DNA of 20,000 nucleotides from Conidiobolus incongruus B7586 (Eukaryota), in the NCBI GenBank assembly GCA_000697335.1, contig JNEM01013820.1, positions 50,221-70,220 of the forward strand, in the 5' to 3' direction. The notes below the pieces were generated by a model, which saw only the letters and a list, made by a program, of their open reading frames with translations, had not been told where the DNA came from and did no database searches. Made by a program: the position numbers and the translations under genes. Below are positions 1 through 20,000 of this stretch, piece after piece. Numbering within the stretch: position 1 is the stretch's first letter; every line of letters begins with the position of its first letter.

Positions 1-3000
1 ATTTGATATAAAATTACATTTGCTGTATTACATTTATATACCAGAATATCTAGATCTCAAAGATCCTAACCAAATAGCGCTTTTGGACACTTTATCTTCT
101 TTTAGTGGTAAATTCAAATTAAAATCCTTTGAGATAGTTTATCCCTTTCAATTTAAGCTAAAGCGCAATCTCTATGATCTCTGACGGATATGAATTTTTA
201 TTAATTGAATTAGATAATAATTTGCAAGATTTGAAAAAATATCTCTTGCTGCTGTTATTTAATAATTGTAATAGATTCAGCTCCTATTAGGTTTATTTTT
301 CATCTCGTTTATAATCTAAATTAATATTTGATAATTATTTGTTTCAATTACGTTTTATTTTCTACCTATACTTATGTTATTGGTTTAAATAAGCTCAAAT
401 TTATTGGTTTTAAATATTGAATGATGATATTGAGTTGAAAATTTTGATTTAAAATCAGCCACCCAAAATTCAAATAATATTTCAAAATTAAAATTAATGG
501 GTAATATCCAATAAACTTAATTTATTAGTTTAATATAATCAATAAAAACACCCCAAAATTTAAAAAATTTGATATGACATAATTCCTTATTAAGAAGTTT
601 TACAAAATTACTACAATCTTTTCATATATTTTTCAATATTACCAAATTAAGTAATGTTAATTTAATTTATCATTTTCAAAACATTAAAATTTTTATCCCA
701 AATTTGACCTGAATTATATTCAAGTTTCAATCTATTTGCCAATTTTCGAAAAATATTTGAATAGGGAGAATTTATTCGAATATAGTATAAGTTTTACCTG
801 TATAGCCTATACTATGTTAAATATTTATTTTATTGATAAATAATACCAGAAGACAGTAATCAATGTGAATAATAAAATGAAAAAGTATGGTGTTATAATT
901 ATCAAATTAGCATCCAAAATCCTTCTGCAACTTGTACAATATAACAAATATTAATCCTTAGCAATTAGACTAAGGTGAATATATTAATTAAAAGATAGGG
1001 TGGCAGTTCAAATTTATCCTTGAGTTATTTTTTACAAAAGCGTTTGTGCTGAAATTCAAGTTCAATTTAGTATTAATTTTACCGATTCTACAATATTTAG
1101 TAATGAATGAAATCATGTTGATATTGAGTACCAATTTGCGTATATTCTCAGGGATATTGAGTTGGATTCTAATCAAAGACATTGAACAATATACATTATA
1201 AGTACCAAATTGTTTATATTATTTTAAGGTAAATTAAGGGATTTCAAGTAAATAGTCATAGAATTGTCGATCAAATAATTTTATATACAATATAAATTCA
1301 TATCGGGATTATATTCCATAATAATTTCAAATATTATTTAGAATTATACCGTATTGCGGATATTTTTATTCAAACTCACTAGAATCTAATAAAAGGTAAC
1401 TTTATCGAATTTGGCAATCCTTGCCAAAAATGAACTCGTTTGTACTATATTTGGGTTTTAGCGACAATTTACTTAAAAACATTCTTTAAAATATTAAATA
1501 TAATATCAATTTTATCATTTTACATTAATATTTATTAAACAAATATAAGATTATCTCATTATAACAAAGAAAGTGATAATTAGCATCAAAGATTTAATAT
1601 GGTAATTTGTTAAAGCATCATACACACGATTAAATTTGAATCATGGTAATATTATATAATATTGAAAAAAAATATCAATCATAATAGGAATCATTAAATT
1701 TTATTAAGTAATTCTCATTGCAGTTATAGTGTTTACTATTATTAAAAATATTAATGGAATGGATATAGAATAATATTTATCAGGTAAATATTAATATATA
1801 TCACACCTTAACCTGACTTCTAGATTTTCACAGCCTGATTAAATGATTGTTTGAGTGCATCATGTTTGTATAGTTCTTTGGAATAATATTTCATATATAA
1901 TACTACTATGAAATGTAATTTTACTATTAAAAATTATTGGCTCCAATTTTCCTTTTCAAAATTTAAAGTTCTACTCATATGGAGTTTATTCTTGCTAAAT
2001 ATAAATATTTTCGACTAAGTAAATTAGAAATAGACTACCAGTTAATATCAACTCTCGACCAGTTAACTAGCCAAATAATGATAACAAGACTTGAATATCA
2101 TTTGATATATCTATGTACTAATCATTTTTTTAAAAACAATAATAATACTATTCAACCGATTATCTTTCTAAATCAAAATAGAAAAACAATTATCTAGTTT
2201 TATCATTCAAAAATTTTAATATCTATTCAATAAATAATAAGTTCCAAAAAGATTTATGAATCTTGTTTAATTAAATGGAATTGATATTACCAAATATTGG
2301 AATATATATCCAAAGATAGTTAATTTGATTGATATCATACTTTCAATTGAGTACAAACCAATCTACATTTATTGATATTTATTTCTATTAAGTATATATT
2401 TTTTATCCAATTATTTTAATGAATATATTAACATGCTAGTGTAATAATATCTATTTTAAAGTAGGTTAAATCTCTTATTTGGTTTAGGGTCCGAACTAAG
2501 ATTAACGAATAGGAAAAGAAATGGATAAATCCAAGCAATCTCTATATCCAGCCTTATATATCATTAAACAAAGCTTCCATTCTACTAATTAATAAATCAT
2601 GGCTATTGATTTAACAGTGTTTTTTCGGAATTTTTAGACTAATTTTCTATTTTTGATTTTTCGAAAATGAATAAAAATGTAAATTAAATTATTCAGTATA
2701 TATTTTGCCCACAAAATAATAGTTATCAATTAGCACTAGTTGTATTAAAGTTACTAAAGAATATATAGTAACATCATTGATGTCAACCTGTATAATATAT
2801 TATTTTCATTAAAATTAATTATATCATTTTTTCTGTGATGATAAACTGAATAAATTGAACTTATATCATTTGAATTAATATTCAATTTTTAATAAATATT
2901 AATTAGATTATATTTGAAATTTTAAAATCATTGATGTTTTCAACATGAATTCAAATATCATATATATCACTTTTAGGAAAAACTATACAGAATATTATAT

Positions 3001-4511
3001 CAAAATATATTTTGCATTGTTCGGAATTGATAGTTCAACCATTATGAAATATTAATTGTAAAGGGATTAAATGCTATATTCTTCAAAGCATAATATTCCA
3101 CTTTAAAAATACATGATACCTAACTATTTTAATTGATATTTCAACTATTTTGGAAGTGAAATAACTAGAATTTTCAATATTTTATAGTATTGTTCTTATA
3201 ATATTTCGAAAATCTAGCATTGAGGCCAAATTATCATACGATATACTAATATTATTAAATAATCATCCTTATTTTATTATAAATATTTAATTATCAAATG
3301 ATTAATCAATATTTGATTAAAATTTGTAAATTTATAAAATATTTTTGATTAATTTGAAAATATAAAGGGTGATATTAATAAAATCAAATAATTAATATTT
3401 TCATTATATCTCCATTAAACATAGAATTGATAATATCAACCCTCACATTTATTCAATCATTATTGGTGAATTGAATATTTTCATTTATGGATTCATAACA
3501 ATAACAATGCCTAATATTATATCAGTAATGAGTGTCTGTTAAATAGATATATAAGAATGATCAATAATTTAATCAACTTGAAATATATTGAAATAAAATC
3601 ATATTTTGAATACTGCGACCTAATTCATTTCTTTTAATATCTTCCTTGGTATATAAATTCACACAATGGCATTATTAAATATTTGTTAACATTACCTCAT
3701 AAGTGATTATAGCCAAGATGCTCCCATTTATCTATAAAATTTTCAATTTATTTCAATGGAATATATCAAAAATCAAAATCGGAAAATCAATAGCATTTGT
3801 CATTCAGCATATAAATATTGTATATAGCCAAATATCCTGATTATTGGTATTATTATCATAACTTATATGATTAGATACTATAAATACAAACTAAAGAAAT
3901 CCAAAAAAAATTAACAATATTTGAAATTTTATTAGAGTTCAAAAAGGGTAATACTTAGAATCTCTCATATTTTAAACTGATATGTCTGCTCACAGATTGT
4001 CATTTTGTATTCAATTTAAGTCAAATATCCATCATCGTTAAAATATACTTTGATTTTATTAAAGCATCAGTTCGTTTTATATAATTAATAACGAATATAT
4101 AAATTGTTGATGAATTTTCAATCAACAATAAAAACTAATAATAAACATTGATATGAATAAAGACTATCTCAATTGTTCAGGTAATTAAATCATTCTCATC
4201 AACTAAACCTGTAATATATAAATAGAACAATTTTAATATTACCCAGTTTATTAATTGATAATATATACCCTTAATTGCCAATTTATATTTTTTTTATTAG
4301 ATAATATTTTGTTGACTGTATTATTAAATATTTTTAACATATTGGCATTAGTGAATTCTTTCATAATTTTCCCTAAGTTGGAAATCCTTTCATTAAGCTT
4401 TATTGTTTAAAATACGTTTATAAACTGCCATTTTCAATATTGTTCAATTTAGTTTATTGATGTTTGAACAACTCATTTTCGCTTGTTAATAAATTTGGGT
4501 ATTTTTATTCA

Positions 4512-5485
4512 ATGAAAGAAAAATCTAAAGTTATTAAAAAGAAAAGTACTTTTATTCAAAAGTTGTATAGGTAATAAACTTAAAATTGGTGTAAGATTAT
4601 ATCAAATTAAATCAAATGGATTAGGTTGATCGAAGAGAATGCCAATACCAGACTAATATACTGGAATGAAAAGGGAACGGAAATTAAAATTGAAAATATT
4701 CCCAGATTTGAAAGAGAAGTATTGGATCAATATTTCAAGAACAGCTCTATCGCTTCTTTTATTCGTCAACTGAATGTAATAACCTATAGAAAACTTTATA
4801 CTTAATAATATCTGACATTTATTCTCTATAGATATATGGATTCAAAAGAACCAGCGATGGTCGAAGGCATAGGAAAGATGCTGGCAGATTGACATGCTCC
4901 TTCAAACATGAAAAATTCCTCAGAGACAGGCCAGATTTAAGGAGTCAAATCACTAGGCAAGTATTCGTTGGAAAGACTGTCTCTAATACAACCACAGGGA
5001 ATAGCTATTCCCCTAATTTCTCTGAAACAGATAGGCATGATACACCTTTACTGGCTTCTAACGCTTTTCAGTTTTCAGATATTATGCCAATGTGTAATGA
5101 TGATTTATATACGAACACTCTTTCCAATTTTGATTCCAAAGATCTCAATCCAATTCCTTCCAACTTTTCGAAAGACAACTATACTAATTTTTGTATCTCA
5201 AGGTTAGAACAGATAAATGCACAATTCACACAGCTGCAGGAAGAATTTGAACTCCTTAACGAACAATTACACAACTCCACCCATATTCCTACTCCATATA
5301 CCATCCATCACAATACGTATATCAATCTCAATTGGAAGCATGATTCCCCGACGGCCAACCAAATTGGATATGTTTATTCAATTCCAACTCTACCATCTTA
5401 TCACTGCTCACCTGATTCAATTAACCACCCAGAATACTCCCCTATCCATTTTAACTTGGATTTACACCCTGAAATGTATCCATAG
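4512..5485 (+). CDS. HSF-type DNA-binding domain transcription factor, 3 exons: join(4512..4570,4625..4775,4832..5485), 287 aa
   Basis: Manual splicing gives MKEKSKVIKKKSTFIQKLYR|LIEENANTRLIYWNEKGTEIKIENIPRFEREVLDQYFKNSSIASFIRQLN|IYGFKRTSDGRRHRKDAGRLTCSFKHEKFLRDRPDLRSQITR... This matches the HSF winged-helix signature (F..KLY, I.W...G, YFK.....SF.RQLN.YGF.K, F.H..F.R.RP.L). Exon 3 is in frame with track ORF 4889..5485, and the total of 864 nt is divisible by 3. A short heptad/coiled-coil segment (ISRLEQINAQFTQLQEEFELLNEQL) lies in exon 3. Confidence 0.92.
4571..4624 (+). other. Intron 1 of the HSF-type gene (54 nt, phase 2)
   Basis: GTAATAA...TAG boundaries. Removal joins AG+G (Arg) and continues the HSF domain in frame. 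Confidence 0.88.
4776..4831 (+). other. Intron 2 of the HSF-type gene (56 nt, phase 0)
   Basis: GTAATAA...TAG boundaries and a CTGAC branch-point-like motif at 4812-4816. Removal restores RQLN|IYGF. Confidence 0.9.
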
Positions 5486-8400
5486 CTGATACTTTCAAAT
5501 TGTATATTTACTATTTGTTATTAAAATATCAGATAAAATCCCTTGCACTCAAACATTAACAGTATTTTTGTCTATATAAAGTAACTACAACAAATAACTA
5601 ATATCCACTAATATATTGAACCAGTTTCAAAATTTGAGGATTATAATGTATTAGTATACCATGATAAACGTATGATTACATCAAATATTCAATTCCAACC
5701 CTATCTAAACTATTAGTCAATTGCTTTATTTAAGATAGAAATAAAATATTATGAATTAAAGTTATTCTTTGAATACCTATTATAGAATTATATTTTAATA
5801 TATTTCCCTTTCATCAATAAATTTTATTTTTTGTTAAAATCTTTTAATAAATTGTGAAATTTAATTTTAATTTTAATTTTAACAATGTGGTTTTATAGAT
5901 AGTAAACCGCCCGATCATCTTTGCCTCATCATCTATTTCCTTATGATGATGTTACCTCAGAAGGCAAATTACTCTAAAGGTTTCATTCTCTAGAAGGCCT
6001 ATCTCACCTCTAGACACTATCTTTAGCCAACGATTATACTATAAAAGAATTGATGCCATAAGTTTGACCATAGGAGGACAGTGGTCCGCTCACAAGATAA
6101 TAATATCCTTTTATCTTCTAAATAAAGCCTTTGATTTAGTACTGTCACTTACTAACAGTAGCTTACCTGCCTCAGCTACTTATTTTATACATTGCTAGTA
6201 ACTGGCATTGTAATAACATAATCACAAGGTACCAAATATAAGTAACAAATTTAAATGAACTTATCATATTTATATTCATTAAAAATATATTTAAATGAAC
6301 CATATTATATAAATATTTTATTATATACATGATTCAATTTTAATTAGTTTTTAAAATGATATCTTTTATTAGGAATTTTAATTAATTTTAAAGAATTTTC
6401 AAATATTATAAGTTAAAATTATAGATTTATAAAAGGTATGATTCAAGATTAACTGATTGGCATTATAAAATATTATGCAGAGATATACCTAATAATTCAT
6501 TATTAAAATAGATCTTTGACTAAGATATATTTAGCAATCAATGAGAGTGTAGTATTATCTAATGATATGAGGGATTGTTATAGTATTATTAATATTTTCA
6601 AATCAATACAAACAATTATGTAATTAAAAATTAAATTTTAAATTTAATAATTTAAATATTATAGATAATTTATCAATTTCTCCGAAAGATTAAAATTGTT
6701 CAAAATTTCAATTATAAAATTAGAAATTAAATTGAAATTACAGGCATAATTTAATTTGAAATATAAATGTCATTTTAATAAATGGTTGATTCAGGTTAAA
6801 AGTATAAAATCCGAATAGGTAATTAACATTTTTGAGGTGTATTTGATTAGGATTTATCATTTTAATTATTCCAAAAAAATCATTTCAGAAAATTATGAAC
6901 TCTAGAATTCAAGGTTTAATCGGATAAGGGCGTTGAATTCTTGATTATTATTTCATAGTAAATATAAGTATAATTGGTATGTAATTGAATAACTAATATT
7001 GTTTCATATTTTAATAGCATTGAAATTATTTTTCCAACTTTATACTTTACAATTCGCATATGCTATTAAAATGATTAATAAATTTATTCATATAAACATT
7101 GCTCTTGTTTATTTCAAGAAAGTATATAATATCCTCTATACATCATTAAAGTAATTTTTAAATACTATAATTTGGGTTTAATTCCACTATTGAGTAATGA
7201 CACAACTAGAATATCAAATTTTAAGTAATTTTGATTTTTATTAAAATTTATTACTATACTTTTAATAATTAATATTAAAAATTTTGAATATTTTAATTTT
7301 TTCTAATTCACTTATTAATATTATTAAAAAGTATATAATTTCAAAGCTATAATTCACATATTGATCAGTATATTTTTAGTTATATTATACTGTGATATAT
7401 TGATACACTAAATTTATATAATAATCCTTATCAAAATAAAACCTTAATTTTGTTAATCAATCAAATCAATCTAAAAAATGTACTTGATTTTATATCAATA
7501 AAGACATATATAAACTTCATTGATATTATATTTTAAATGCTTATAAAAGTTTAATTTAAAAAGTACAATAGAAAGAATAGATACGAACCAGGAATATTTT
7601 TGGTTATATTAATTGATACTTTGTTACATATAATAACTCATAAACCCCCCATCCACATAAAAATTTGAATTAAATTTTAATACTAATATATTATCAAATG
7701 ATATTTGTCACAAGTATTTCAAACTCTAATTATTACATTTAAATTTATAAATATAAGTATCACTTTTATCATATATTAATACCTGATATTATAATATTAT
7801 TTTTTGCAGAAATAGAATCAAGCAGTCTATATTTAATCTAATTAATTCAAAATTTTGTTTATTAAATATAAATCAAAATTCACTCAAAATTAATCAATTA
7901 TTCTCATTTATATTATTTTGATATTTTATTATAATTTTTTAAATGATTTTAATATATTATCTCACTTATAATAACAAAATATAAAACTTTTCTTTAATAA
8001 TATTTATGATTACTAATATCATACTTATTATTCATATCTTGATTTTTTTAAAGATACACCGATCATCGTTTTTAATATTATAATTGATTTCAGATCATAC
8101 AAATTATAATAATCAAGTTAAAGTGAATTTATATTTTCTATAAATTTCTAGTAGTTTAATAGTATATTAAATGTTTAATGATATACAAATAATACAAAGC
8201 ATTAAATTAAAAAAAATAATATTTAAATTAAATTTTTCATATATTAATAGTAATTTAGTTAATAAAAAAATTTTTTTAATGTTATATATTGAAAAGAAAT
8301 GATAAAACTACAATTAAAATATGGTTTGAATCAATAATATCAAGTAATATTTACTAAGATAACTGCATAAATATAACTTAATTAAGATATTTTACCTTTG

Positions 8401-9120
8401 TATTTAATAGAATCAACAGTATTATACAAATACAAAATTTCAAAAAAAAAATAATTTAAGTTTTGATTGTTATACTTTTTAAGAATCTCTTTAGTTTACG
8501 GATATGACATCTATATCAAACATTTAAAAGTTTATCTTGTGAAATGATAGTTTTCATTATGATCTTCATACATTATTAAATCAAATACATATATTAATTC
8601 TAACTTTGACTTAAGTTTGATTATGTCAAGTCGAATAAAATCAAATACAAAAATTAATGCATCTTGAAATAACATACTAACAATAACTAATAGATATAAT
8701 GATATTTGAAATTATACAATGTATTGATTTGAAATATAATTTAAATCATTAAATCTATTTGATCAATGTACCTATAAATATAGAATTTTATCTGTGTTAG
8801 ATTGAATAATTATTATATTAAAAATGATATCTTTAAGATAAAAAAATTCAAATATAAAATCATAAATTTGATAAAAAAAAATCTTTCAATAAATAAATAA
8901 AATATTTATAATGATACCTTGAAAAAAATCATATGTACAAAATTACTGAATTCATCATATAGCGAAACCCGTGGTAATATAAGTGGATATTACGAGTATA
9001 TAAAGTTATCACAAATATTGATACAAAAATTTCAAATTAATCAAATGTTCAAATTGAAATCAGATGCTCCTAAAATTTAATTAAAATTGAATATAATTTT
9101 TGTTTAGTTAATAAAATTGA

Positions 9121-9597
9121 TTAATAAAAGATAGGGTTCTTCTTTTCATGAATGGGTTCCAAATGTTCAGGAGCATCAGGAATAGTTTTAGTGAGGTTAA
9201 AAGCCTTCAAAACACAGCTATTAAATTTACGCTCAGCAGGTCTACAGTAATAAAATTCCATATTGTTCTTATCTAAACACTTCCAGTGTTCTTCGTATTC
9301 GGGACCACACTTTTCTTTTAATTTGGCGAGAAAATCGGTCGCACAGCGAGTAACGCGGCGGCCTTCTTTTAATGAGTGAGCTGGATCGGGATTTTCAGCT
9401 TTGCTCAACATGAAATCTTCAAAGTAGGGACGGCAGTATTCGCCCAAGAAAAAGGAAGCTGAGAGAAGGGGAGCGGAAGTGGCACCAACTTCATCAACGT
9501 GAGGGATGGTATTTGGCATAGGAGTAGGATCGACATGTTTGCCTTCAATACGGAAATCATAGGCTGAGGTACCGTGAGGAGAACTACCTGCTGACAT
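9121..9597 (-). CDS. NDUFA8: NADH:ubiquinone oxidoreductase (complex I) accessory subunit, NDUFA8 / fungal 20.8-kDa family, 158 aa, intronless
   Basis: Fungal-type motif DPTPMP..IPHVDEVGATSAPLLSASFFLG..C, the KEGRRVTRCA motif, and CX9C spacing (C97-C107, C118-C128). GC and CpG content are clearly higher than in the flanks. Confidence 0.95.
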   Translation of the reverse strand: MSAGSSPHGTSAYDFRIEGKHVDPTPMPNTIPHVDEVGATSAPLLSASFFLGEYCRPYFEDFMLSKAENPDPAHSLKEGRRVTRCATDFLAKLKEKCGPEYEEHWKCLDKNNMEFYYCRPAERKFNSCVLKAFNLTKTIPDAPEHLEPIHEKKNPIFY

Positions 9598-10014
9598 TTT
9601 TAATTAATCTATATAATTTATTTCATGATTAATAAATTATTATGATTTATTATATTGTAAAAATTAATTACTTTAATAATTTAATTTAATCTCACTTGAC
9701 TTTTATTTTTACAAATATAATTAAATATAAATATGGAATGAATTCTTATTAAAATTTGTGGGATTTGAGTTTAATCCATTTATCAATTTGATTTGTTTGA
9801 TTGATAAGATTGATCAAATTCTGAATACATTTAAAGTTGAACATTTAATAGAATATTCACATCAAATAAAATGAAAGCAACTCTACTATATGCGAATTAA
9901 TAATCCATATTAAACTTCAATAATTTCATATTGTATATTTATTATTATGTTAGGTTGAGAATGAAATAATGATCATTTTAGAACTTTTATTATGAATTGA
10001 ATTCTAAGTATATT

Positions 10015-10016
<2 letters not shown>

Positions 10017-10056
<40 letters not shown>
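10017..10056. repeat. (AT)20 microsatellite
   Basis: Perfect AT dinucleotide run of 40 nt, about 420 bp upstream of the NDUFA8 start codon. Confidence 0.95.
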
Positions 10057-10061
<5 letters not shown>

Positions 10062-11433
10062 ATCCAATAGCCTTCATAATTGAAAACTAATTCAGCCCAT
10101 ACTTTGTGAAAATATCTGAATCCAATATTCTACTTTTTTATTTAAGTTATATAATTTAACTTTCAATTAATATCAGTTAATTTTATAGCTTTTGACAATT
10201 AAAATACTTTTTCTATAATCCTAAAATAATGTTAGTAAAAATGATCATGATCAGGAGAATATTATAAACGTGATAGCCTTGACTACTTTTCAATTAATAG
10301 GTTTTTAACTAGTTTAGAGTTATGGTTACTTATATTACCATGCAAAATTATTGGCTTTTCAATTTAATATTAATTACCTTGAAATATAATACCTCAGAAT
10401 CAAAAAAAGATAAATTTTTCAATCACATTATTAGTCTCAGAAAAAAAACATATATAGATATATATAATGTTTTTTTTCTTTAAAAATTTACTTTTGAAAA
10501 TTTATTGTTTAATTTAATCATACTTAAATTAAAAAGTGATTTTCAAAAATTTTTATTTTAATATGAATAAAACTTAACCATAAACTTTTTAAAATTATTT
10601 AAGATTTATAAATAATATTTAAAAGTAGTACTTTATTTAAATTAACTGTTTATCATTAGATTAATTACTTTAAAGTCAAAACAAAAACTATTTAAAACTT
10701 GTTAAATTTTTTAATAAAAAATTAAATCAAGCTATCACTTATTTAATTATAATTAAAATAAACCAATATATTAAAAAACACCAGATTATTTTGGTTAAAG
10801 AGTTACTAAAATATTTCTGTACTAGATATACAAGTGTTGTATTTCAAAATTAATTATCTCTTCTAGTTTGATAGCTAAACCAATATTATTTCTATTTTAA
10901 GCTGACTTTGTCAGTCTATAATTAAAGGATACTCTTTGTTCTCTTTATTTTCTTTATTAGATTTTATCTAAATCCTATATCATTCATTGATTCAATTATT
11001 TAAACCCAACAGTGATAAAGATAAAGAGGAAGTTTTTTTTTCTTTTGGATATTTTGCTACAACACCTCAACAGTAAGTTTTCAAACCTACAGTCCCAATA
11101 TGTTAAAGAGCAGGATTAATAAATAATTTACTAAATTATATTTTGAGTATTTTTCTAACTACAATCTTTATTTATAAAACTTAATATAAAACACAACACA
11201 AGTATATTATATATATTTAAGTTAAAATTTAAATTAATTAACAAAGTTATATAATAGTTATCTTATAATTTAACTGAAGATTAAAAATAAGCTAAAGTAA
11301 TTATAATTAAACAAAGCTTATCAAAGTATAAGTATTTATTAAAGCTTTTATAATAAATTTTTATAATTGATAAATAATAAATCCTATTATATAATTCTAT
11401 ATTAAAATATAAATCAAAATGATAGGTCAAGAT

Positions 11434-11438
11434 AAAAT
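11434..11438 (+). repeat. Target-site duplication, left copy (AAAAT)
   Basis: Abuts the 5' LTR and is identical to 17156-17160. Low complexity, but it sits exactly at both homology boundaries. Confidence 0.85.
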
Positions 11439-11838
11439 TATTAAGAGACTAGTTCTCTAAATTCTTATATACACTTTCATATAATCTAATTAACTATTAA
11501 TTATATGATTAATTTATACTTCTATAGTTAAATTAATTGTATAAATAGTATTAAATCATTTAATAAACTAGGTTCTTTTTTTTTCTTCTCAATTCTTACT
11601 ATTTTTTACTTTTACATTATTTCTAAGATTGAGACTATATTCTATTAATATTATAAGATATTAGCACTACCTAATATAAATCTTAATATATTAGTGACTT
11701 ATCCTAGTTTAAAGCTTAATTAAACTTTGTTTACACTTGCACATTATAGCTATATTATATTACTATATTCTATACCACACTACTTTTATATTAAGTTTTC
11801 CTCTACACTATATTAGTTTAACTACCACTACACTTATA
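11439..11838 (+). repeat. 5' LTR (400 bp; termini TA...TA, inferred from TG...CA)
   Basis: Runs TATTAAGAGACTAG...CACTTATA. Aligns without gaps to 16756-17155 with 28 mismatches by eye. Confidence 0.95.
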
Positions 11839-11849
11839 TAATAACAGCA
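11839..11849 (+). other. Decayed primer-binding site, probably for initiator tRNA-Met
   Basis: TAATAACAGCA lies directly after the 5' LTR. It can be derived from TGGTAGCAGCG by G>A changes alone. The tRNA identity is an inference. Confidence 0.55.
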
Positions 11850-12103
11850 ATAAAACTGTTAAAAACCTACTAGATATTAATAACTATTTATATCAAACTT
11901 AATTATTGCTATTTTAAATTTTATCTATAATTTATTTCATTTAAGTTTAATACTATATATTATAATACTACTAAAAAAAAATACCTTTATATTATTTTAA
12001 TAATGATAATAATTTAATTACTAAGTAAATCTAAAACTTTAGTCTTTAAAAACTTACTACCCTCTAAGAAACTTATATTAGACAATTTTTGATAGAAAAA
12101 AAT

Positions 12104-12910
12104 ATGTCTTAAAGAGTTTAAATCTAACAAACCAGCTACTTTATTATAATTAATACATTAAACCACCTTTTTAGTGTTTTTAAAAACAAATTAACTACTT
12201 ATAATAGCTTAAAAAACCTTTACAAGCTTGAAAACTACCTTAAAAATATAAAGAATTATTTTAATTTGATTCTTAATTAAAATTTAAAGAATATCTTTAA
12301 ATTAGCTACTTTTTTTTTAGAAAAATTTGTTTATACTTGGTAATTAACTTATTATAAGTTTAATCCTAAAGAATTTTCAAGAGGATAACTTACTACAAAA
12401 ATACAAACTTTTAAACAATTGGAAAAAGCTTTTAAAGAGAGGTATTACCTAAAAAATCAAGTTTAATTAACAAGAGAAAAGTTTTCCTAGCTTAAATAAA
12501 AAACTTCTACAAAATAATTAATTGAGAAATTTAATGAGATATTTTTAAATATATTAAATATTACTAAAGAAGAATAAATCTACAAACTATTATAATACCT
12601 TAACTTTTAAGTAAAGCTTTAATTAGTTAGTAAGGAACACTTTGATAATATGTTTTTTTCTAATATTTATGATATAGTAATTATAATTGATGATATTTTT
12701 TACTTTATAACTAAATTTTCCTACCCTAAAAATTAATCTTTTAAACTTTACTTTAACCTACTTAAGTTTTAAATAATAGATGTTTCTGCTTTAAAGCTTT
12801 ATAAGAAAATCTTTAGTGAAGAAGCTAAAGCTTACTTGAAAATAAACAAAGGTTATTATTATTACTAAAGGACTTAAGTTAATTATAAAACTAACAAATA
12901 CCTTTTAAAA
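12104..12910 (+). pseudogene. gag region (retrotransposon Gag-like, with decayed zinc knuckle)
   Basis: Reads ATFFLEKFVYTW*...TFKQLEKAFKERYY.KNQV*LTREKFS*LK*, then IDVSAL, then GYYYY*RT*VNYKTNKY, in which the Cys/His positions now read Tyr. Confidence 0.75.
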
Positions 12911-13159
12911 AAGCAATATCTATTTAATTTTCAACAATCTTAACTTACCAACTATAAATTAAACTTGAATAATATTAATATAATTTTAGAATCACCCCTT
13001 TTATAATTAGTTAGTAGATTTTAATCTAATCTACAAAAGTTTTAATGAACCAATGATTCTATAAATTAAACTATGTATACTAAAGAAATCTAACTGATTA
13101 AACTATTAGAAACTAGAAATATTCTAGTAACTAATTTACCTTGTAATTTTTTACCTTTA

Positions 13160-13500
13160 ACTATTACCCTATTGTTTGTGTTAACTAATTTTTTTATAGA
13201 TATACTTGTTAGTGTTTTAATTAACTTTAGTTGTTTTAGTTGTATTATTTCTTTTTTTATTATTGTAAAGCTATCTTTACCTACTTAAAAAAGTAACTTA
13301 ATAATTAAATATACTAACAACTTAATAGAACAAACATCTAGTATTGTATTTAAATACTTATCACTACTTCTTAACTACTCTTAATATATTAAATTCCTAG
13401 TTAACAACATTAGTTATAATTTTATACTAGGTTAAAATTAGTTTGAATATCACAATTTTATATCTATAGATATTACCCTAGAAGGTTACAAATTTATTTT
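13160..13500 (+). pseudogene. Aspartic protease domain (decayed; boundaries approximate)
   Basis: VSVLINFSCFSCIIS restores to ..LIDSGC.. by transitions only (AAC TTT AGT from GAC TCT GGT at 13223-13231). Confidence 0.75.
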
Positions 13501-13769
13501 TTTCAGATTCTAAAAGAAATTAGTAGAATTAATCTTAAAAAATCTATATTACCCTACTATAAAACTATTAAATACTTTACTTAACACTAACTCTATAATT
13601 GTAGCAAATAATTTTATTATTATAAGTAAAAATTAATATAAAAAGCTAATTAAAAACTTAAATAATTTATAGGGATATATATTTGTTTATTATTCATCTA
13701 TTAACACTTTATCTATTGATTTTAATAAAGTTATATCTAATAACCACTTCTTATACAATATAGTGAGTT

Positions 13770-14480
13770 AATTTGCTAATGTTTTTAAACTTGTAAATAA
13801 ATTACCACTTAAATATAATATTAAACACAAAATTAAACTAATCCCTAGTATATAACTATATTTAAAACCTACTTACCATTTATCTCTTGAATAATACTAA
13901 ACCTTAAAAGAAGAAATCCAAAAACTATTTGAAAATAGGTATATTAGATTTTCTTCTTCACTATAAAAATCTCTAATCTTCTTTATATAAAAGGCTAATA
14001 GTAGTTAAAGATTATATATTGATAACTGTGTTTTAAACTCTAAAACTATTAAGGATAAAACTTTATTATTAAACCTATATAATGTTAAAGATAAACTACT
14101 TAGATCAACTATATTTATTAAACTAGATGTTAAGAATAAATATTACAACATTAAAGTTAGAGAAGATTCTATCCCTTTAACTATTTTCAACACTCTTTTA
14201 AGCTACTATAAATTTATTGTTATAAACTTTAAATTGTATAATACCCTTGTAACTTTTACTTAATTTATCAATTCCCTTTTTAACCTTGTTTTTAATAACT
14301 TTATTATCACCTACTTTAATAATATCTTAATCTATTTAAAAACTAAAGAAGAATATATTTAACATGTTAATTAGGTCTTATAAATTATTCAAGAATATAA
14401 ATTACCTTTGAAATTATCAAAATATATCTTTAGTGCCTCTTCTGTCTTTTTCTATAGTTATATTGTTTTCTCTTAAAGAA
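13770..14480 (+). pseudogene. Reverse transcriptase domain (decayed; boundaries approximate)
   Basis: FANVF..., YIRFSSSL*KSLIFFI*KANSS*RLYID (=YIRPSSSPW.SP.FFV.KADGS.RLCID), KLDVKNKYYNI and TYFNNILIY (=YLDDILIY). Confidence 0.92.
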
Positions 14481-14739
14481 TTAATATTGATTTAACTAAA
14501 CTCAATGGTGTTAAAGCTTTTACTATACTTATAAACAAAAATCAACTTATGTTTATATTTAAATTATTAAATTACTTTAAAGATTTCATTGATTCTTTTG
14601 TTGAATTTGTTACTCCTCTTACTAATTTTTTAAAGAAAGACTCTCTTTTTAAATAAACCCTACTATATACTTTCTACATAAATGCTTTAATTTTCTATAT
14701 TATTAATACTTTTGCTTTATCTATCTTTAATCTAAAACT

Positions 14740-15180
14740 ACCTACTATTATTTTTACTAACTCTAGTTTTTTTGCAATTAGTAAATAATTAACCTAGTTT
14801 GAATTTAATTTATATTTTACCTTATAACTATAGGATAAAATAATAAATAAAGGAAAATAAGTTGAGTTTAACTTTACAAATGTTACCTTAAAATTAATAA
14901 CATTCTGGTTAAGAAAAATAAAACCAGCTGAATTAAAATACCTAATTTATAAATAAAAACTCTTTGTTTTAGTAGAAATAATTAAAAATCACTTACATTT
15001 CTTATCCTACAATTTTTTTTTAGCACTTATAAATCATAAATCACTTATCTACTTAAATACTCAAAAGTATTTATTAAGAAGATAAGTTAAATAGATTAAA
15101 ACTATCCAAGCTTATTTTTTCTTTATTTAATATCTCTTAGGTTAATAAAACTATGTTGTAGATACTTTGTTAAAAAATCC
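14740..15180 (+). pseudogene. RNase H domain (decayed; boundaries approximate)
   Basis: IFTNSSFFAIS, FWLRKIKPAELKY (=FWSRKMKPAELKYP), INHKSL (=TDHKSL) and NYVVDTLL (=N.VADALS). Confidence 0.88.
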
Positions 15181-15449
15181 TACATATTTACCTTTTTATT
15201 CTAATTGTAAAAATCCAGCAAATATTAACTCAATAATTATTAATAAAGGAAATAAAAAATTTATTAAACTACTTTAAGAAACACTATTAAATAATAATTT
15301 CTTTATTTTTGTTAAAGAAAAACTCTTTAAACTATTAGAAAACCAACTAAAATATGTTAAAAAATTTAAAATTATCAATAACTTACTATATTATAATGAT
15401 TATCTATATATTCTTAACATTCTTAAAATTTAACAAACAATATTTAATG

Positions 15450-16480
15450 AATGTTATAACTTATTTGTTAGAGAACATCAAAACTAGTTAAAGACTGCTG
15501 AGAGAATTAAAACAAGGTATTACTAGCTTTCTTTAGTTAAATTAGTTTAGAAATACACTAATACCTGTGATATATGCTAAAGAATTAAATATAATACTCA
15601 ACTAAAATATGGTAAATTTATTCCCCTACAAGTCCCTAATGAAATTTAATAACAAATCCAACTTGATTTTATAGAAATCCTTAAATCAACAAATAGTTAT
15701 AATAACTTACTAATTACAATTGATTCATTTTCTAAATATGTTTATTTTATTCCTTGTTTCAAAACTTCTACAGCTAAAGATGTTACACAATTGTTATTCT
15801 CTAATATCTTTACCCACTATAAAATTCCACAAACTATTGTATTTGATAGAGATGTACAATTCAACTCTTAATTCTAAAAGTCACTATCTTTTTCTTTTAA
15901 AATTAACCTAGTTATATTTACTACTAATCATCACTAAACCAATAAACTTGTTGAAAAAACTATTAAAACCTTGAAGTAAATGATTAAAACTTATATTAAC
16001 ACTAATCAGTTAAATTAAGATACTTATATCTATTAACTCTAATATTCATTTAACACCTTTATTAATAAATCAACAGGTTTTAGCCTTTATTTTATTAATT
16101 ATAACAAATACCTTAACTTAATAATTACTCTAAAACTTCAAATCAACTTACCTTTAGACATTGTTGAATTTTAATCTAATATCAAACATATTAATTCTCT
16201 TGTTAAATTTAACTTAGAAGAAAATTAAAGGATCATAGAATAACAATACTTAAAGTTATTTAAAAACCCTCTTAAATATAAAACTGGTATGTTTATATAC
16301 TTAGAACAATTTACCCTTAAACTTACCTTACTTAAATCTAGCTTAAATCCCAAATACTTACTATTATATTATAGTCCTTATAAAATTTAATCTATTGATT
16401 TAAATTTTGAAAATATTACCTTAGAATTACCTTTAACTTTAAGGATCAACCCTACCTTTCATATATTTAAAATTAAACTA
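15450..16480 (+). pseudogene. Integrase with HHCC zinc finger, DDE core and GPY/F module (decayed; boundaries approximate)
   Basis: TCDIC*R, IQLDFI, IDSFSK, IPQTIVFDRDVQFNS, NHH*TNKLVEKT, YYSPYKI (=GPY) and INPTFHI. Confidence 0.92.
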
Positions 16481-16549
16481 TACTTTGAAAATTTTAACAC
16501 TTTTCTTAATTGATTAAAAACCCCAAAACTAGATTCAATTATTAATTAA

Positions 16550-16710
16550 GATAGAGAAGAAGAATACTATATTAATTATATAATTAAGTTTAAATTTGTT
16601 AGGAATAAACTTTATTTTTATATAAAATAGATAGGTTATTTTATTAAAGAAGCTACATAAGAACCTCTAGAAAATATTAAGAATACTTTAGCTTATTATA
16701 CCTATTTGTA
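16550..16710 (+). pseudogene. C-terminal chromodomain of integrase (decayed)
   Basis: DREEEYYINYIIKFKFVRNKLYFYIK*IGYFIKEAT*EPLENIKN corresponds to EEY.V..I....Y.VKW.GY...EATWEP.EN. Both Trp codons are converted to TAG/TAA. Confidence 0.9.
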
Positions 16711-16748
16711 AAAAAATTAAAGAGTATGTCTCCTTTAAAAAACCCACT

Positions 16749-16755
16749 AGGGGAG
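16749..16755 (+). other. Polypurine tract remnant
   Basis: AGGGGAG immediately precedes the 3' LTR and is a conspicuous G run in an otherwise G-poor element. Confidence 0.8.
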
Positions 16756-17155
16756 TATTAAAAGACTAGTTCTTTAAATTCTTATATATACTTTTATATA
16801 ATCCAATTAACTATTAATTATATAATTAATTTATACTTATATAATTAAATTAATTGTATAAATAGTATTAAATCATTTAATAAATTAGGTTCCTCTTTTT
16901 TCTTCTTAATTCTTATTATTTTTTACTTTTACACTATTTCTAAGATTGAAACTATATTCTATTAATATTGTAGGATATTAGCACTACCTAATATAAATCT
17001 TAATATATTAGTGACTCATCCTAGTTTGAAGCTTAATTAAACTTTGTTTACACTTGCACACTACAGCCACATTATATTACCACATTCTACACCACACTAC
17101 TTTTATATTAAGTTTTCCTCTGCACTATATTAGTTTAACTACCACTACACTTACA
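16756..17155 (+). repeat. 3' LTR (400 bp; termini TA...CA)
   Basis: Runs TATTAAAAGACTAG...CACTTACA. Starts immediately after the PPT and is followed directly by the TSD copy. Confidence 0.95.
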
Positions 17156-17160
17156 AAAAT
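17156..17160 (+). repeat. Target-site duplication, right copy (AAAAT)
   Basis: Abuts the terminal CA of the 3' LTR and is identical to 11434-11438. Confidence 0.85.
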
Positions 17161-20000
17161 AATCCTATTTATATATTTTAATAAATATTTTATTTATAAA
17201 AAAATCTTAATTTTTATAATAGATTATAATAATCTATATTATTTTAATTTAATATTTGAAATAAAACCAATTAATAATAAGTTTGATTATTTTAAATAAA
17301 AAAATACTTTTAATTGATATTTTTAATATAATTTAAAAATATCTGTTATTTTACATAATAATTATAAAATATATTTTAATTTATAAAAAATATTTTGTTT
17401 AAATATAATTAATAGAAATTAATATATTTAATTTATTTATAAGATTATTTTTTTTTAAAATATTATAAAATCAGCATATTAGACAGAAAATTTTTATAAT
17501 TATAATTAATTAATAAAATATAAAGTCAAGTTTTTAATAAAAAAAGGTTATTTTTCATTCGTTAGAAGTTTGCCAAAAATATTGCAAAAAATCATAAATA
17601 ATAATAAATAATATTGTTTTAAAATATATATTTATTTTTGTAATATATTTAGATTAAAACCTTTATTTATATTTAATATTAAGAAAATCTTATTATTTAA
17701 AATCCAAAGTAATTATTGAAAAATTATTTTTGAATTTTATAGTTCAATTATTAATTATAAATATTAATTTATCAAAAACTATAGTAAAGTAATCAATACT
17801 AATGAATAGCATGTTTTTTGATAATATTTGTTAATATAGAATAATTAAAAAAACTATCAAAAATCAATTAAAAATATATCTTAAATTTCAATAATAATGT
17901 ATAAATAGATATCCAAGATATATAAAACAATATAATAGTTATTATACCCTAGGTTTTCTATAAATAAAATATTTAATATTATTTGGGCTATAATTATTAT
18001 TTTAATTTTTTTATAAATTTTTTAAATATTATAAATATATTTCATTTTTTGGTTAAATAATATTTTTTAAATAATCAAATTAATTCTTGTTAATTAAAAT
18101 TTATTATTTAATTCCTAGAAAAATTTAATATATTAAACAAAATATTATTGAATCTTTTATATCAATTATTAACTTTTTTTGGTTGAGCAAATAATTTAAA
18201 TTTATCTTTAAATAATCATTTCCACCATTTTAAAAAATTAATTTAATCTTTTGTTATGGAATATTATAAATCATTTTCGCCATAAATTTAGGATATAACT
18301 TGATGGATAGAATAGATTAATTATATATTAATAAATAATAATATAACATTTTTTAATAAATATTGAATTTTAAAATTATTTTGTTTATAATTAATTTTAA
18401 AAATTAAATTAATATTAGAATATTATAAATAAAATTTATTATTTTAAAAACTTAAAATAATATCCAAACTTTTATTAAAAATATCAACTTTCAAATAAAA
18501 TATTAAATTTTATTTTAAAATTCACAAAATATTACTATTTTATGATTTATTTCTTAATTATTATATTATTATTAAAAAATTTACTTAATATATATATTAT
18601 AAGTTATATTGATTAAATCTTTCAATAATCAGAAGATAATTTAATAATTAATCTTAGTTAAATAAAATATATAATAAAATATAAAACAAATATCAAAATA
18701 TAATTAATTAATAATATATTAATCTTAACCAATATTTTACAAGCTTATTGTTTCCAAAGTTATTATTAAAGATAATAAAATTAATAAAATTTAATAATAT
18801 TAATTATGCAAACTTTTATAAATTATTAATAAATATATATTTATCAAAAGTATTTTTATTATTATAGACAAAATATATATCAAATTATATCAATCAAAGT
18901 GATAACATTATTGATTTTATTATTTGAGAAGGATCTTAAAAATTTTATAATATAGTTTGAGCCTAGCTTATTATTCATTTTAATTAATTTTACTAGAACT
19001 TAGCATTAATTGATTTTGTTTTTAAATTAATGTATTTTTTTCAAAAGATTTAATCTCAGTACTTTTCAAGTCTTATTTAAATTTGTGTAAATGTCGAATT
19101 GCAATATAGTTTAATACATATAAGTCATTTCTTTCATAGATAATATTTTATTAATCACGAATTATTGATATTATTATAAATGCTATTATTTACAAAGTTC
19201 ATGAAATAAATATATTTCTTCGGTTGAATCATGATATTTAACTGCACATTATCATATGATTAATTTCATGATTCAAATATTTTCTGAAAACTATTAGATA
19301 TATCAATTTTCTTGATATCTTTTCTAAAAACACTGATTCATCAATTTTGATTTAATAGTAGAGATTGGTGAAATTTAATGCTTTATTATCATTCTGTATC
19401 ATAAGATAGATATACAGAATTTTTATCTATTAATGGTCATAAATGGTGTTAATATTCTTATTGTAACTTGTCGCTATTCCATCATAGTTATTCAAAATCA
19501 TATATTGTTTAATAATTTTACATTTCAAGTATCATATTGAGCTGACGCTATCCGAATATGGAGATTCTAGTTAATCTATTAGAGTTCAATATTTTCGTAG
19601 CATATAACACAGCATTTGATTCAATAAAGCACATCATCACATTTGCTATCATAATCATTATATTTAACTTTTAGTGTCTTGGGCAATCTTAACTGAAATC
19701 AATTATCAATTTAAGGAATTGTGTGTGATTTTAAATGAACAAACTCAATAATCATAAGAGGGATCTATAATCAAATTTATTACCTCTTGAGTATTCACTG
19801 GTTTTATACAAGCTAAATTTGTAAAAAGAGCTTTCTTACTGCAAACTTACTGTTCTCACTAGGAATTTTATTAATACTATCAAGTTAACTGCACAAAATA
19901 TTTATAAGAAAGATATTTATATATTTTAAATTATTAAGATTCTATAATTATTGTAATATTATCTTAAACCAAATTTTAAAATATAAGGTTATATATTTAT

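Follow-up and report, generated by a model that had tools for sequence, protein, structure and literature searches.

Within a 20,000-nucleotide (nt) stretch of the Conidiobolus incongruus B7586 assembly GCA_000697335.1 (the window: contig JNEM01013820.1, positions 50,221 to 70,220), positions 11439 to 17155 hold a dead but structurally whole chromodomain Ty3/Gypsy retrotransposon. This element is hypermutated directionally, from C:G to T:A, with almost no other damage. The hypermutation is confined to repeats, neighbouring host DNA being spared, and comparison of the two long terminal repeats (LTRs) shows that at least part of the changes post-date insertion. We think it somewhat probable that they arose by methyltransferase-linked mutation of silenced repeats, through DNMT1 and a DIM-2-like enzyme and without RID. 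The original prediction, made from the letters of the window alone, had proposed repeat-directed hypermutation akin to repeat-induced point mutation (RIP). Its repeat-restricted, directional, two-stranded and post-insertion character stands, while homology direction was not shown, in view of undamaged duplicated host genes, the loss of CpG and a taper in the mutational load. The basis of these findings is a single full copy, together with short contigs from its family. All four runs behind those contigs sequenced the same sample, which is probably also where the window comes from; they describe the family copies and are not independent replication.

The element, with all its features on the + strand, is flanked by AAAAT target-site duplications read directly from the sequence (11434–11438 and 17156–17160), an addition to the first description. 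The 5′ LTR (11439–11838) is 400 nt long, ends in TA..TA and carries TATAAATA at LTR nt 102; the 3′ LTR (16756–17155), also 400 nt, ends in TA..CA. A purine run, AGGGGAG, abuts the 3′ LTR at the position of the polypurine tract (16749–16755, from the sequence). LTR integrases usually leave termini of the form TG..CA, from which TA..TA probably decayed. If the termini were TG..CA at integration, three of the four terminal CpA sites were mutated after insertion. Between the LTRs lies a single gag-pol frame (12017–16708) that matches gag, RNase H and integrase families and holds 83 stops. Its domains survive as remnants: gag (12380–12595; a Retrotrans_gag match at E = 0.003 that falls short of the curated threshold), aspartic protease (13217–13480, register judged against a profile built from 54 homologues), reverse transcriptase (RT; 13985–14467, mapped from the intact relative P0338), RNase H (14729–15112), integrase zinc-binding and core regions (15431–15960) and a chromodomain (16565–16684, placed by alignment to the PF00385 region of P0338 and not by a direct Pfam match). 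A full HMMER search found this relative (P0188/P0338), which has RT, RNase H, integrase and chromodomain. Its alignment with the element frame covers 1146 columns at 34% identity (34–35% for P0188/P0338); the register shifts three times, always in frame, and no frameshift occurs. No P0338 locus was found in metagenome contigs or viral contigs.

The frame holds, as originally described, and the companion claim, that catalytic motifs had been lost by transitions, holds in part. YFNN replaces the RT motif YLDD at 14312, removing its aspartates, NFS stands at 13223 where the protease D-S/T-G motif is expected, and three acidic catalytic positions of RNase H are altered by G>A-type changes. The catalytic residues that survive are the D, D and E of integrase and, in RT, the first Asp. 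Stops comprise 70 TAA, 11 TAG and 2 TGA; all nine conserved Trp positions have become stops, and two TGG codons remain in the frame. Direction was scored at 345 positions, those whose P0338 residue also occurs in 40% or more of 23 further homologues. The window keeps 172 of these and has changed 173; 125 of the changes need only C>T or G>A, none needs only the reverse and 48 fit neither. P0338 is a relative of the element, not its ancestor, and some differences therefore fit neither direction. Random window codons (1000 draws) gave 29.7 ± 4.7 changes of the C>T/G>A-only kind, with a maximum of 45. Of 327 positions at which a set of 41 other homologues is conserved, 229 are retained by intact P0338 and 133 by the window. 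This P0338-anchored test replaced a preliminary one against 27 distant homologues, in which 34 of 58 changes fitted C>T/G>A (null, 9.7) and RNase H was misaligned.

The LTR pair gives a comparison from inside the element. A recount reproduced the original figures exactly: the two 400-nt LTRs align without a gap, and the 28 sites at which they are unlike comprise 27 transitions (19 C/T, 8 G/A) and one C/A transversion (11522/16839). With 27 transitions at 96 C/G sites against one transversion in 400 nt, the excess is about 100-fold per site, a value that hangs on a single transversion. By context, 16 of the transitions are at CpA, 11 at CpT and none at CpC, and 16 of 32 CpA sites differ compared with 11 of 64 others (p = 0.0014). 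The change since insertion implied by the pair is about 0.33 at CpA and 0.12 at CpT; pol shows 0.71 and 0.31–0.40. Any one of four causes could account for the lower load of the LTRs: the taper, heterogeneity among sites, gene conversion, or the copying of an element that was damaged beforehand. Both LTRs also carry two variants (11498/16815 and 11557/16874) unlike about 99% of the aligned family depth; these are subfamily marks older than the insertion.

Both strands are affected. We tallied 12 residue types with a fixed C/G context, as Leu, Ser and Arg codons bias a tally over all residues; the counts exclude sites explained neither by identity nor by C>T/G>A (48 of 345 at the 40% threshold). 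About half of the fixed-context C/G bases have changed (115 of 232), with plus-strand C altered at 46 of 105 sites and G at 69 of 127 (p = 0.12). One-strand APOBEC-type editing during reverse transcription, which the original prediction had argued against, was rejected on these counts and on the differences between the LTRs. Change reached 22 of 31 sites at CpA (0.71), 50 of 76 at CpA-or-CpG, 21 of 67 to 70 at CpC (0.31 with 67) and 22 of 55 at CpT-or-CpC, and cytosines followed by a purine differ from those followed by a pyrimidine (p = 9 × 10⁻⁷). The order of contexts is therefore CpG, then CpA at about 0.7, then CpC/CpT at about 0.3–0.4, CpG being known by its total absence and having no measurable rate.

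That absence is complete. Where base composition predicts 51 CpG, the 5717-nt element has 0, and there is none anywhere between 10270 and 17559. Elsewhere CpG persists, with 15 in the HSF region (observed/expected, O/E, 0.52), 18 in NDUFA8 (O/E 0.83) and an intergenic O/E of 0.55–0.65, in agreement with the original claim that the two host genes keep CpG. The dinucleotide comparison that had been proposed between the element and intergenic DNA also separates them: TpA/ApT is 1.35 in the element and 0.83–0.90 in spacers, and (CpA+TpG)/(ApC+GpT), the substrate index, is 0.59 and 1.3–1.5, respectively. The composite RIP index is positive solely in 13 of 39 one-kb intervals, those starting at 10501–16501. 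An extremely AT-rich stretch at 17350–19000 (11–13% GC) has raised contig depth and no RIP-like index; it may reflect low-complexity cross-matching. An (AT)n microsatellite lies at 10018–10056.

The family is very abundant in the sample contigs, with a summed depth in run X1 of about 45,000–95,000 over the element and 35–200 on host DNA, figures that are not a copy number. The repeated, CpG-free block spans about 10470–17345 and exceeds the element, which is thus nested inside another repeat. The left part of this second high-copy CpG-free repeat (10470–11438, edges approximate) was delimited by contig depth and variants and its right part (17156–17345, edge approximate) by contig depth. The interrupted repeat is about 1.15 kb in all, and its copies are indel-rich near 10935–11132. 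Searches with blastn and tblastn gave it no identity, returning 57–65% AT-rich matches and no protein match. By eye, loose contig ends at 14009, 14713, 15534 and 16715 carry G/C in family members where the window has A/T; at 14009 the N-S-S-stop of the window corresponds to D-G-G-W in another family copy. These ends indicate that far less mutated family copies exist in the sample.

Host DNA serves as the control for a genome-wide mutation bias, which the original prediction had itself named as the competing account. Family variants were counted from run X1 contigs aligned to 8500–20000 at an 80% cut-off, from a tallied subset, and are lower bounds; host variants came from contigs on 1–10440 at an 85% cut-off, where 394 of 421 records fit partly and one small repeat is included. 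Transitions and transversions number at least 1375 and 126 in the family and 99 and 81 in host DNA (p = 2 × 10⁻³²), which argues against a genome-wide bias. Of the 81 host transversions 49 are A/T swaps, possibly from AT-rich mismatching; with such swaps removed the figures are 1375:49 (ratio 28) and 99:32 (ratio 3.1).

Two host genes offer a further control. The NDUFA8 gene (9121–9597, − strand), unmutated, has a second copy in the sample, and at least 19 differences between the copies comprise 17 silent, 2 missense and no stop changes, with 9 G>A/C>T and 7 A>G. The HSF-type transcription-factor gene (4512–5485, + strand; start and introns read from the sequence) has a second copy 87% alike over the 625 nt of 4546–5170, where the two differ at 81 sites and by 2 gaps. 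Among the differences listed, neither second copy looks hypermutated; both are short and under selection. The second NDUFA8 copy (9121–9800) has a diverged upstream region, and most intergenic DNA lacks a second match at 85%. No NDUFA8 locus was found in metagenome contigs. Diverged second copies of both genes hint at genome duplication or hybrid origin. The encoded NDUFA8 is 91% identical to that of Conidiobolus coronatus, the next matches being 58–64%, and no exact match to its sequence was found in the collection searched. This places the host as closely related to C. coronatus, in Entomophthoromycotina (Zoopagomycota), outside Dikarya and not in Ascomycota, as the predicted early-diverging position required. 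A low-copy repeat fragment at 5917–6264 occurs in about 10 contigs, has 34% GC and 2 CpG left, and 4 of 5 listed differences are transitions; it is possibly a lightly mutated element.

The load is uneven along the element. The inward-facing LTR halves hold 23 of the 27 LTR transitions (permutation p = 4 × 10⁻⁵): in the 5′ LTR 16 of 17 changes lie at nt 138 or beyond, and in the 3′ LTR all 10 lie at nt 195 or before. In pol, 158 of 268 sites (0.59) are changed before 15500 and 65 of 152 (0.43) after it (context-adjusted p = 0.008). Unique DNA is about 190 nt from the 3′ end and about 970 nt from the 5′ end, and the pol load falls toward the nearer end. A silent-chromatin process explains this taper as well as pairing does, and homology direction is therefore not established.

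Passive decay of 5-methylcytosine (5mC) gives an excess of about 10-fold. The roughly 100-fold excess in the LTR pair suggests that conversion was enzyme-assisted. The complete loss of CpG points to an added DNMT1-type component; together with strong CpA and moderate CpC/CpT change it fits DNMT1-type plus DIM-2-type activity. In the mechanism we favour, DNMT1 would methylate CpG and a DIM-2-like enzyme would methylate CpA plus other contexts in silenced repeats, and the targeted cytosines would then be lost to thymine on both strands, after insertion. Targeting would be by silent-chromatin domain and not by DNA–DNA pairing, and RID would probably not be involved. The enzymes, the part played by 5mC and the stage of the life cycle are inferences, the first of them drawn from a relative, C. 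coronatus, and not from the host genome. C. coronatus has DNMT1 (KXN74494), UHRF1 and HELLS and lacks DNMT5 and DNMT3, and in the tree of the same paper KXN73869 is sister to the Dim-2 clade with support 99.9/97 (PMC10538959). Zymoseptoria offers a precedent in a Dim2-dependent mitotic CpA>TpA mutator (PMC8016269). A study of ten Dikarya associates RID with CpA signatures and DNMT1/Masc2 with CpG signatures, so that CpG loss with DNMT1-type genes also has a precedent (PMC4352252).

Several observations weigh against methyltransferase-linked mutation of silenced repeats. The table in PMC10538959 scores Dim2 as absent in C. coronatus despite the placement of KXN73869. The Zymoseptoria mutator leaves CpG alone, unlike the process in the Conidiobolus element (PMC8016269). 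The literature characterises Zoopagomycota as having little 5mC; Linderina shows methylation of repeats (PMC11258239). Silent sites of the NDUFA8 copies are transition-rich too (16 transitions and 3 transversions among the 19 listed). The LTR polarity was spotted before it was tested and is post hoc, and the pol gradient weakens to p = 0.03 on conserved sites alone. In Neurospora, pairing-triggered DIM-2-dependent RIP prefers DNA between direct repeats (linkers and flanks), including with 401-bp units (bioRxiv 10.1101/2021.04.05.438447), and the inner-heavy load therefore cannot separate chromatin from pairing.

The strongest alternative, which we hold to be possible though doubtful, is a true RIP analogue, in which DNA–DNA pairing would flag duplicates, perhaps when zygospores form, for mutation by a DIM-2-like or unrecognised RID-like enzyme. 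It is favoured by the extreme excess of transitions, with hardly any other decay, and by the preference for CpA, which PMC4352252 links to RID. CpA change is higher in pol than the LTR pair implies, much as when DIM-2-dependent RIP acts on a linker flanked by direct repeats. In the fragmented assembly of C. coronatus there are 0 repeats of 1 kb at 95–100% identity (PMC12543289), and RIP has been proposed in Zoophthora radicans (PMC11105155). Set against this, the second HSF and NDUFA8 copies persist, short and selected as they are, and the NDUFA8 differences listed run in both directions without a stop. RID/Masc1 has been reported solely from Dikarya (PMC5751038). The LTRs, the closest linked repeats, are no harder hit than pol, and nothing ties the changes to sex.

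Transcript-guided or transcription-linked mutation, whether through methylation guided by small RNAs or through a deaminase that attacks transcribed copies once integrated, is improbable. The LTR changes, of which 16 of 17 in the 5′ LTR lie downstream of the motif at nt 102, match sparing of an untranscribed 5′ U3 and 3′ U5, although the transcript ends are themselves deduced. The interrupted repeat lies outside the transcript and is equally CpG-free, the strand asymmetry is not significant, and this explanation does not predict the pol gradient.

Bias or artefact, taken together, has a slim chance of accounting for the pattern. The hypermutation could be real and the copy an assembly mosaic of several family members, which would make the LTR comparison and its polarity misleading. 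The great abundance of the family, the lack of an element-spanning contig among those listed and the 0.60–0.65 of sampled words contained in the four runs allow for this, but we regard it as very unlikely: the target duplication matches on both sides, the LTRs share their two variants rare in the family, and the family-wide spectrum and protein-based tests are independent of the LTR pair. A genome-wide GC>AT transition bias acting during neutral decay, and showing up only because the element escapes selection, would suit a window of about 20% GC with depleted intergenic CpG, but is largely refuted, and the least likely of all, given the host and family spectra with or without A/T swaps, the opposite intergenic dinucleotide signature and zero frameshifts across the aligned columns.

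A process of RIP strength that leans to CpA, in a Conidiobolus genome, conflicts with the restriction of RIP to ascomycetes (PMC12543289) and with the tie of CpA to RID (PMC4352252). It raises a testable question, whether DNMT1/DIM-2-type enzymes alone suffice for RIP-like genome defence and whether sex is needed. Dating by LTR divergence is invalid in the Conidiobolus lineage. There is perhaps one chance in a few that repeats in Conidiobolus are mutated at RIP strength by a system that pairing triggers, that works without RID and that uses a DIM-2-like enzyme. Were that so, homology-directed mutation would predate the Zoopagomycota–Dikarya split or have arisen twice, and it would be testable in a culturable, zygospore-forming fungus.

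The original prediction had called such a defence little described. This needs qualification, since RIP at the level of indices has already been proposed in Entomophthorales, at 24.2% in Zoophthora radicans, 5.7% in Entomophaga maimaiga and 2.4% in Entomophthora muscae; the source, which has Z. radicans and three relatives with low values, states "major caveats" (PMC11105155). It holds for Conidiobolus, which with Neoconidiobolus lies outside the RIP panel of that paper. Our literature search, mostly of titles and abstracts and with subscription journals largely outside its coverage, found no alignment-level evidence for Conidiobolus, and the available parts of two reviews (PMC7862722, PMC13297926) hold no Conidiobolus data. 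A 2025 survey of 1,239 species found RIP-like signatures solely in ascomycetes and scored C. coronatus as "no_rip" (PMC12543289). When its screen was approximated on the window, 2 of 18 tetramers more than 2-fold in non-coding DNA were also more than 2-fold in the element, short of the 0.3 ratio that the survey used; the coding sample was small. The spacer DNA is already about 80% AT, which suggests that a composition survey would miss the element.

Compared with known systems, the element is structurally a chromovirus, with LTRs, a 5-nt target duplication and gag-PR-RT-RH-IN-chromodomain in one frame. We see no structural difference from that group; the nearest intact relative found is P0188/P0338. 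The signal in Entomophthorales comes from the host's own order, and the composite index used there is positive over the element as well, but PMC11105155 gives window indices only, whereas direction, context, timing and a host-DNA control were measured for the Conidiobolus element. Pucciniomycotina share transposon CpG loss, a DNMT1-type gene and no RID; their RIP-like mutation targets CpG/TpCpG, whereas most of the changes scored in the Conidiobolus element lie outside CpG (PMC4352252). The Dim2 mitotic mutator of Zymoseptoria tritici likewise acts on transposons by C>T with a CpA preference, and a DIM-2-like enzyme is plausible in the host's relative. More than 98% of its changes are at CpA with CpG spared, in contrast to 0 CpG and CpC/CpT 31–40% changed here (PMC8016269). 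There is a likeness in outcome to the RIP of Neurospora crassa and other Pezizomycotina, which depends on RID and DIM-2: C:G>T:A change only, in repeats, on both strands and at CpA over CpC/CpT, with a positive composite RIP index, intact structure and dead coding. The element differs in that its host belongs to Zoopagomycota, CpG is wholly lost, RID is unreported in the lineage and duplicated host genes persist. We do not class the process as RIP because it departs from that system in its host, and a match in RID, timing and content-blind recognition would be conjecture; its outcome is RIP-like.

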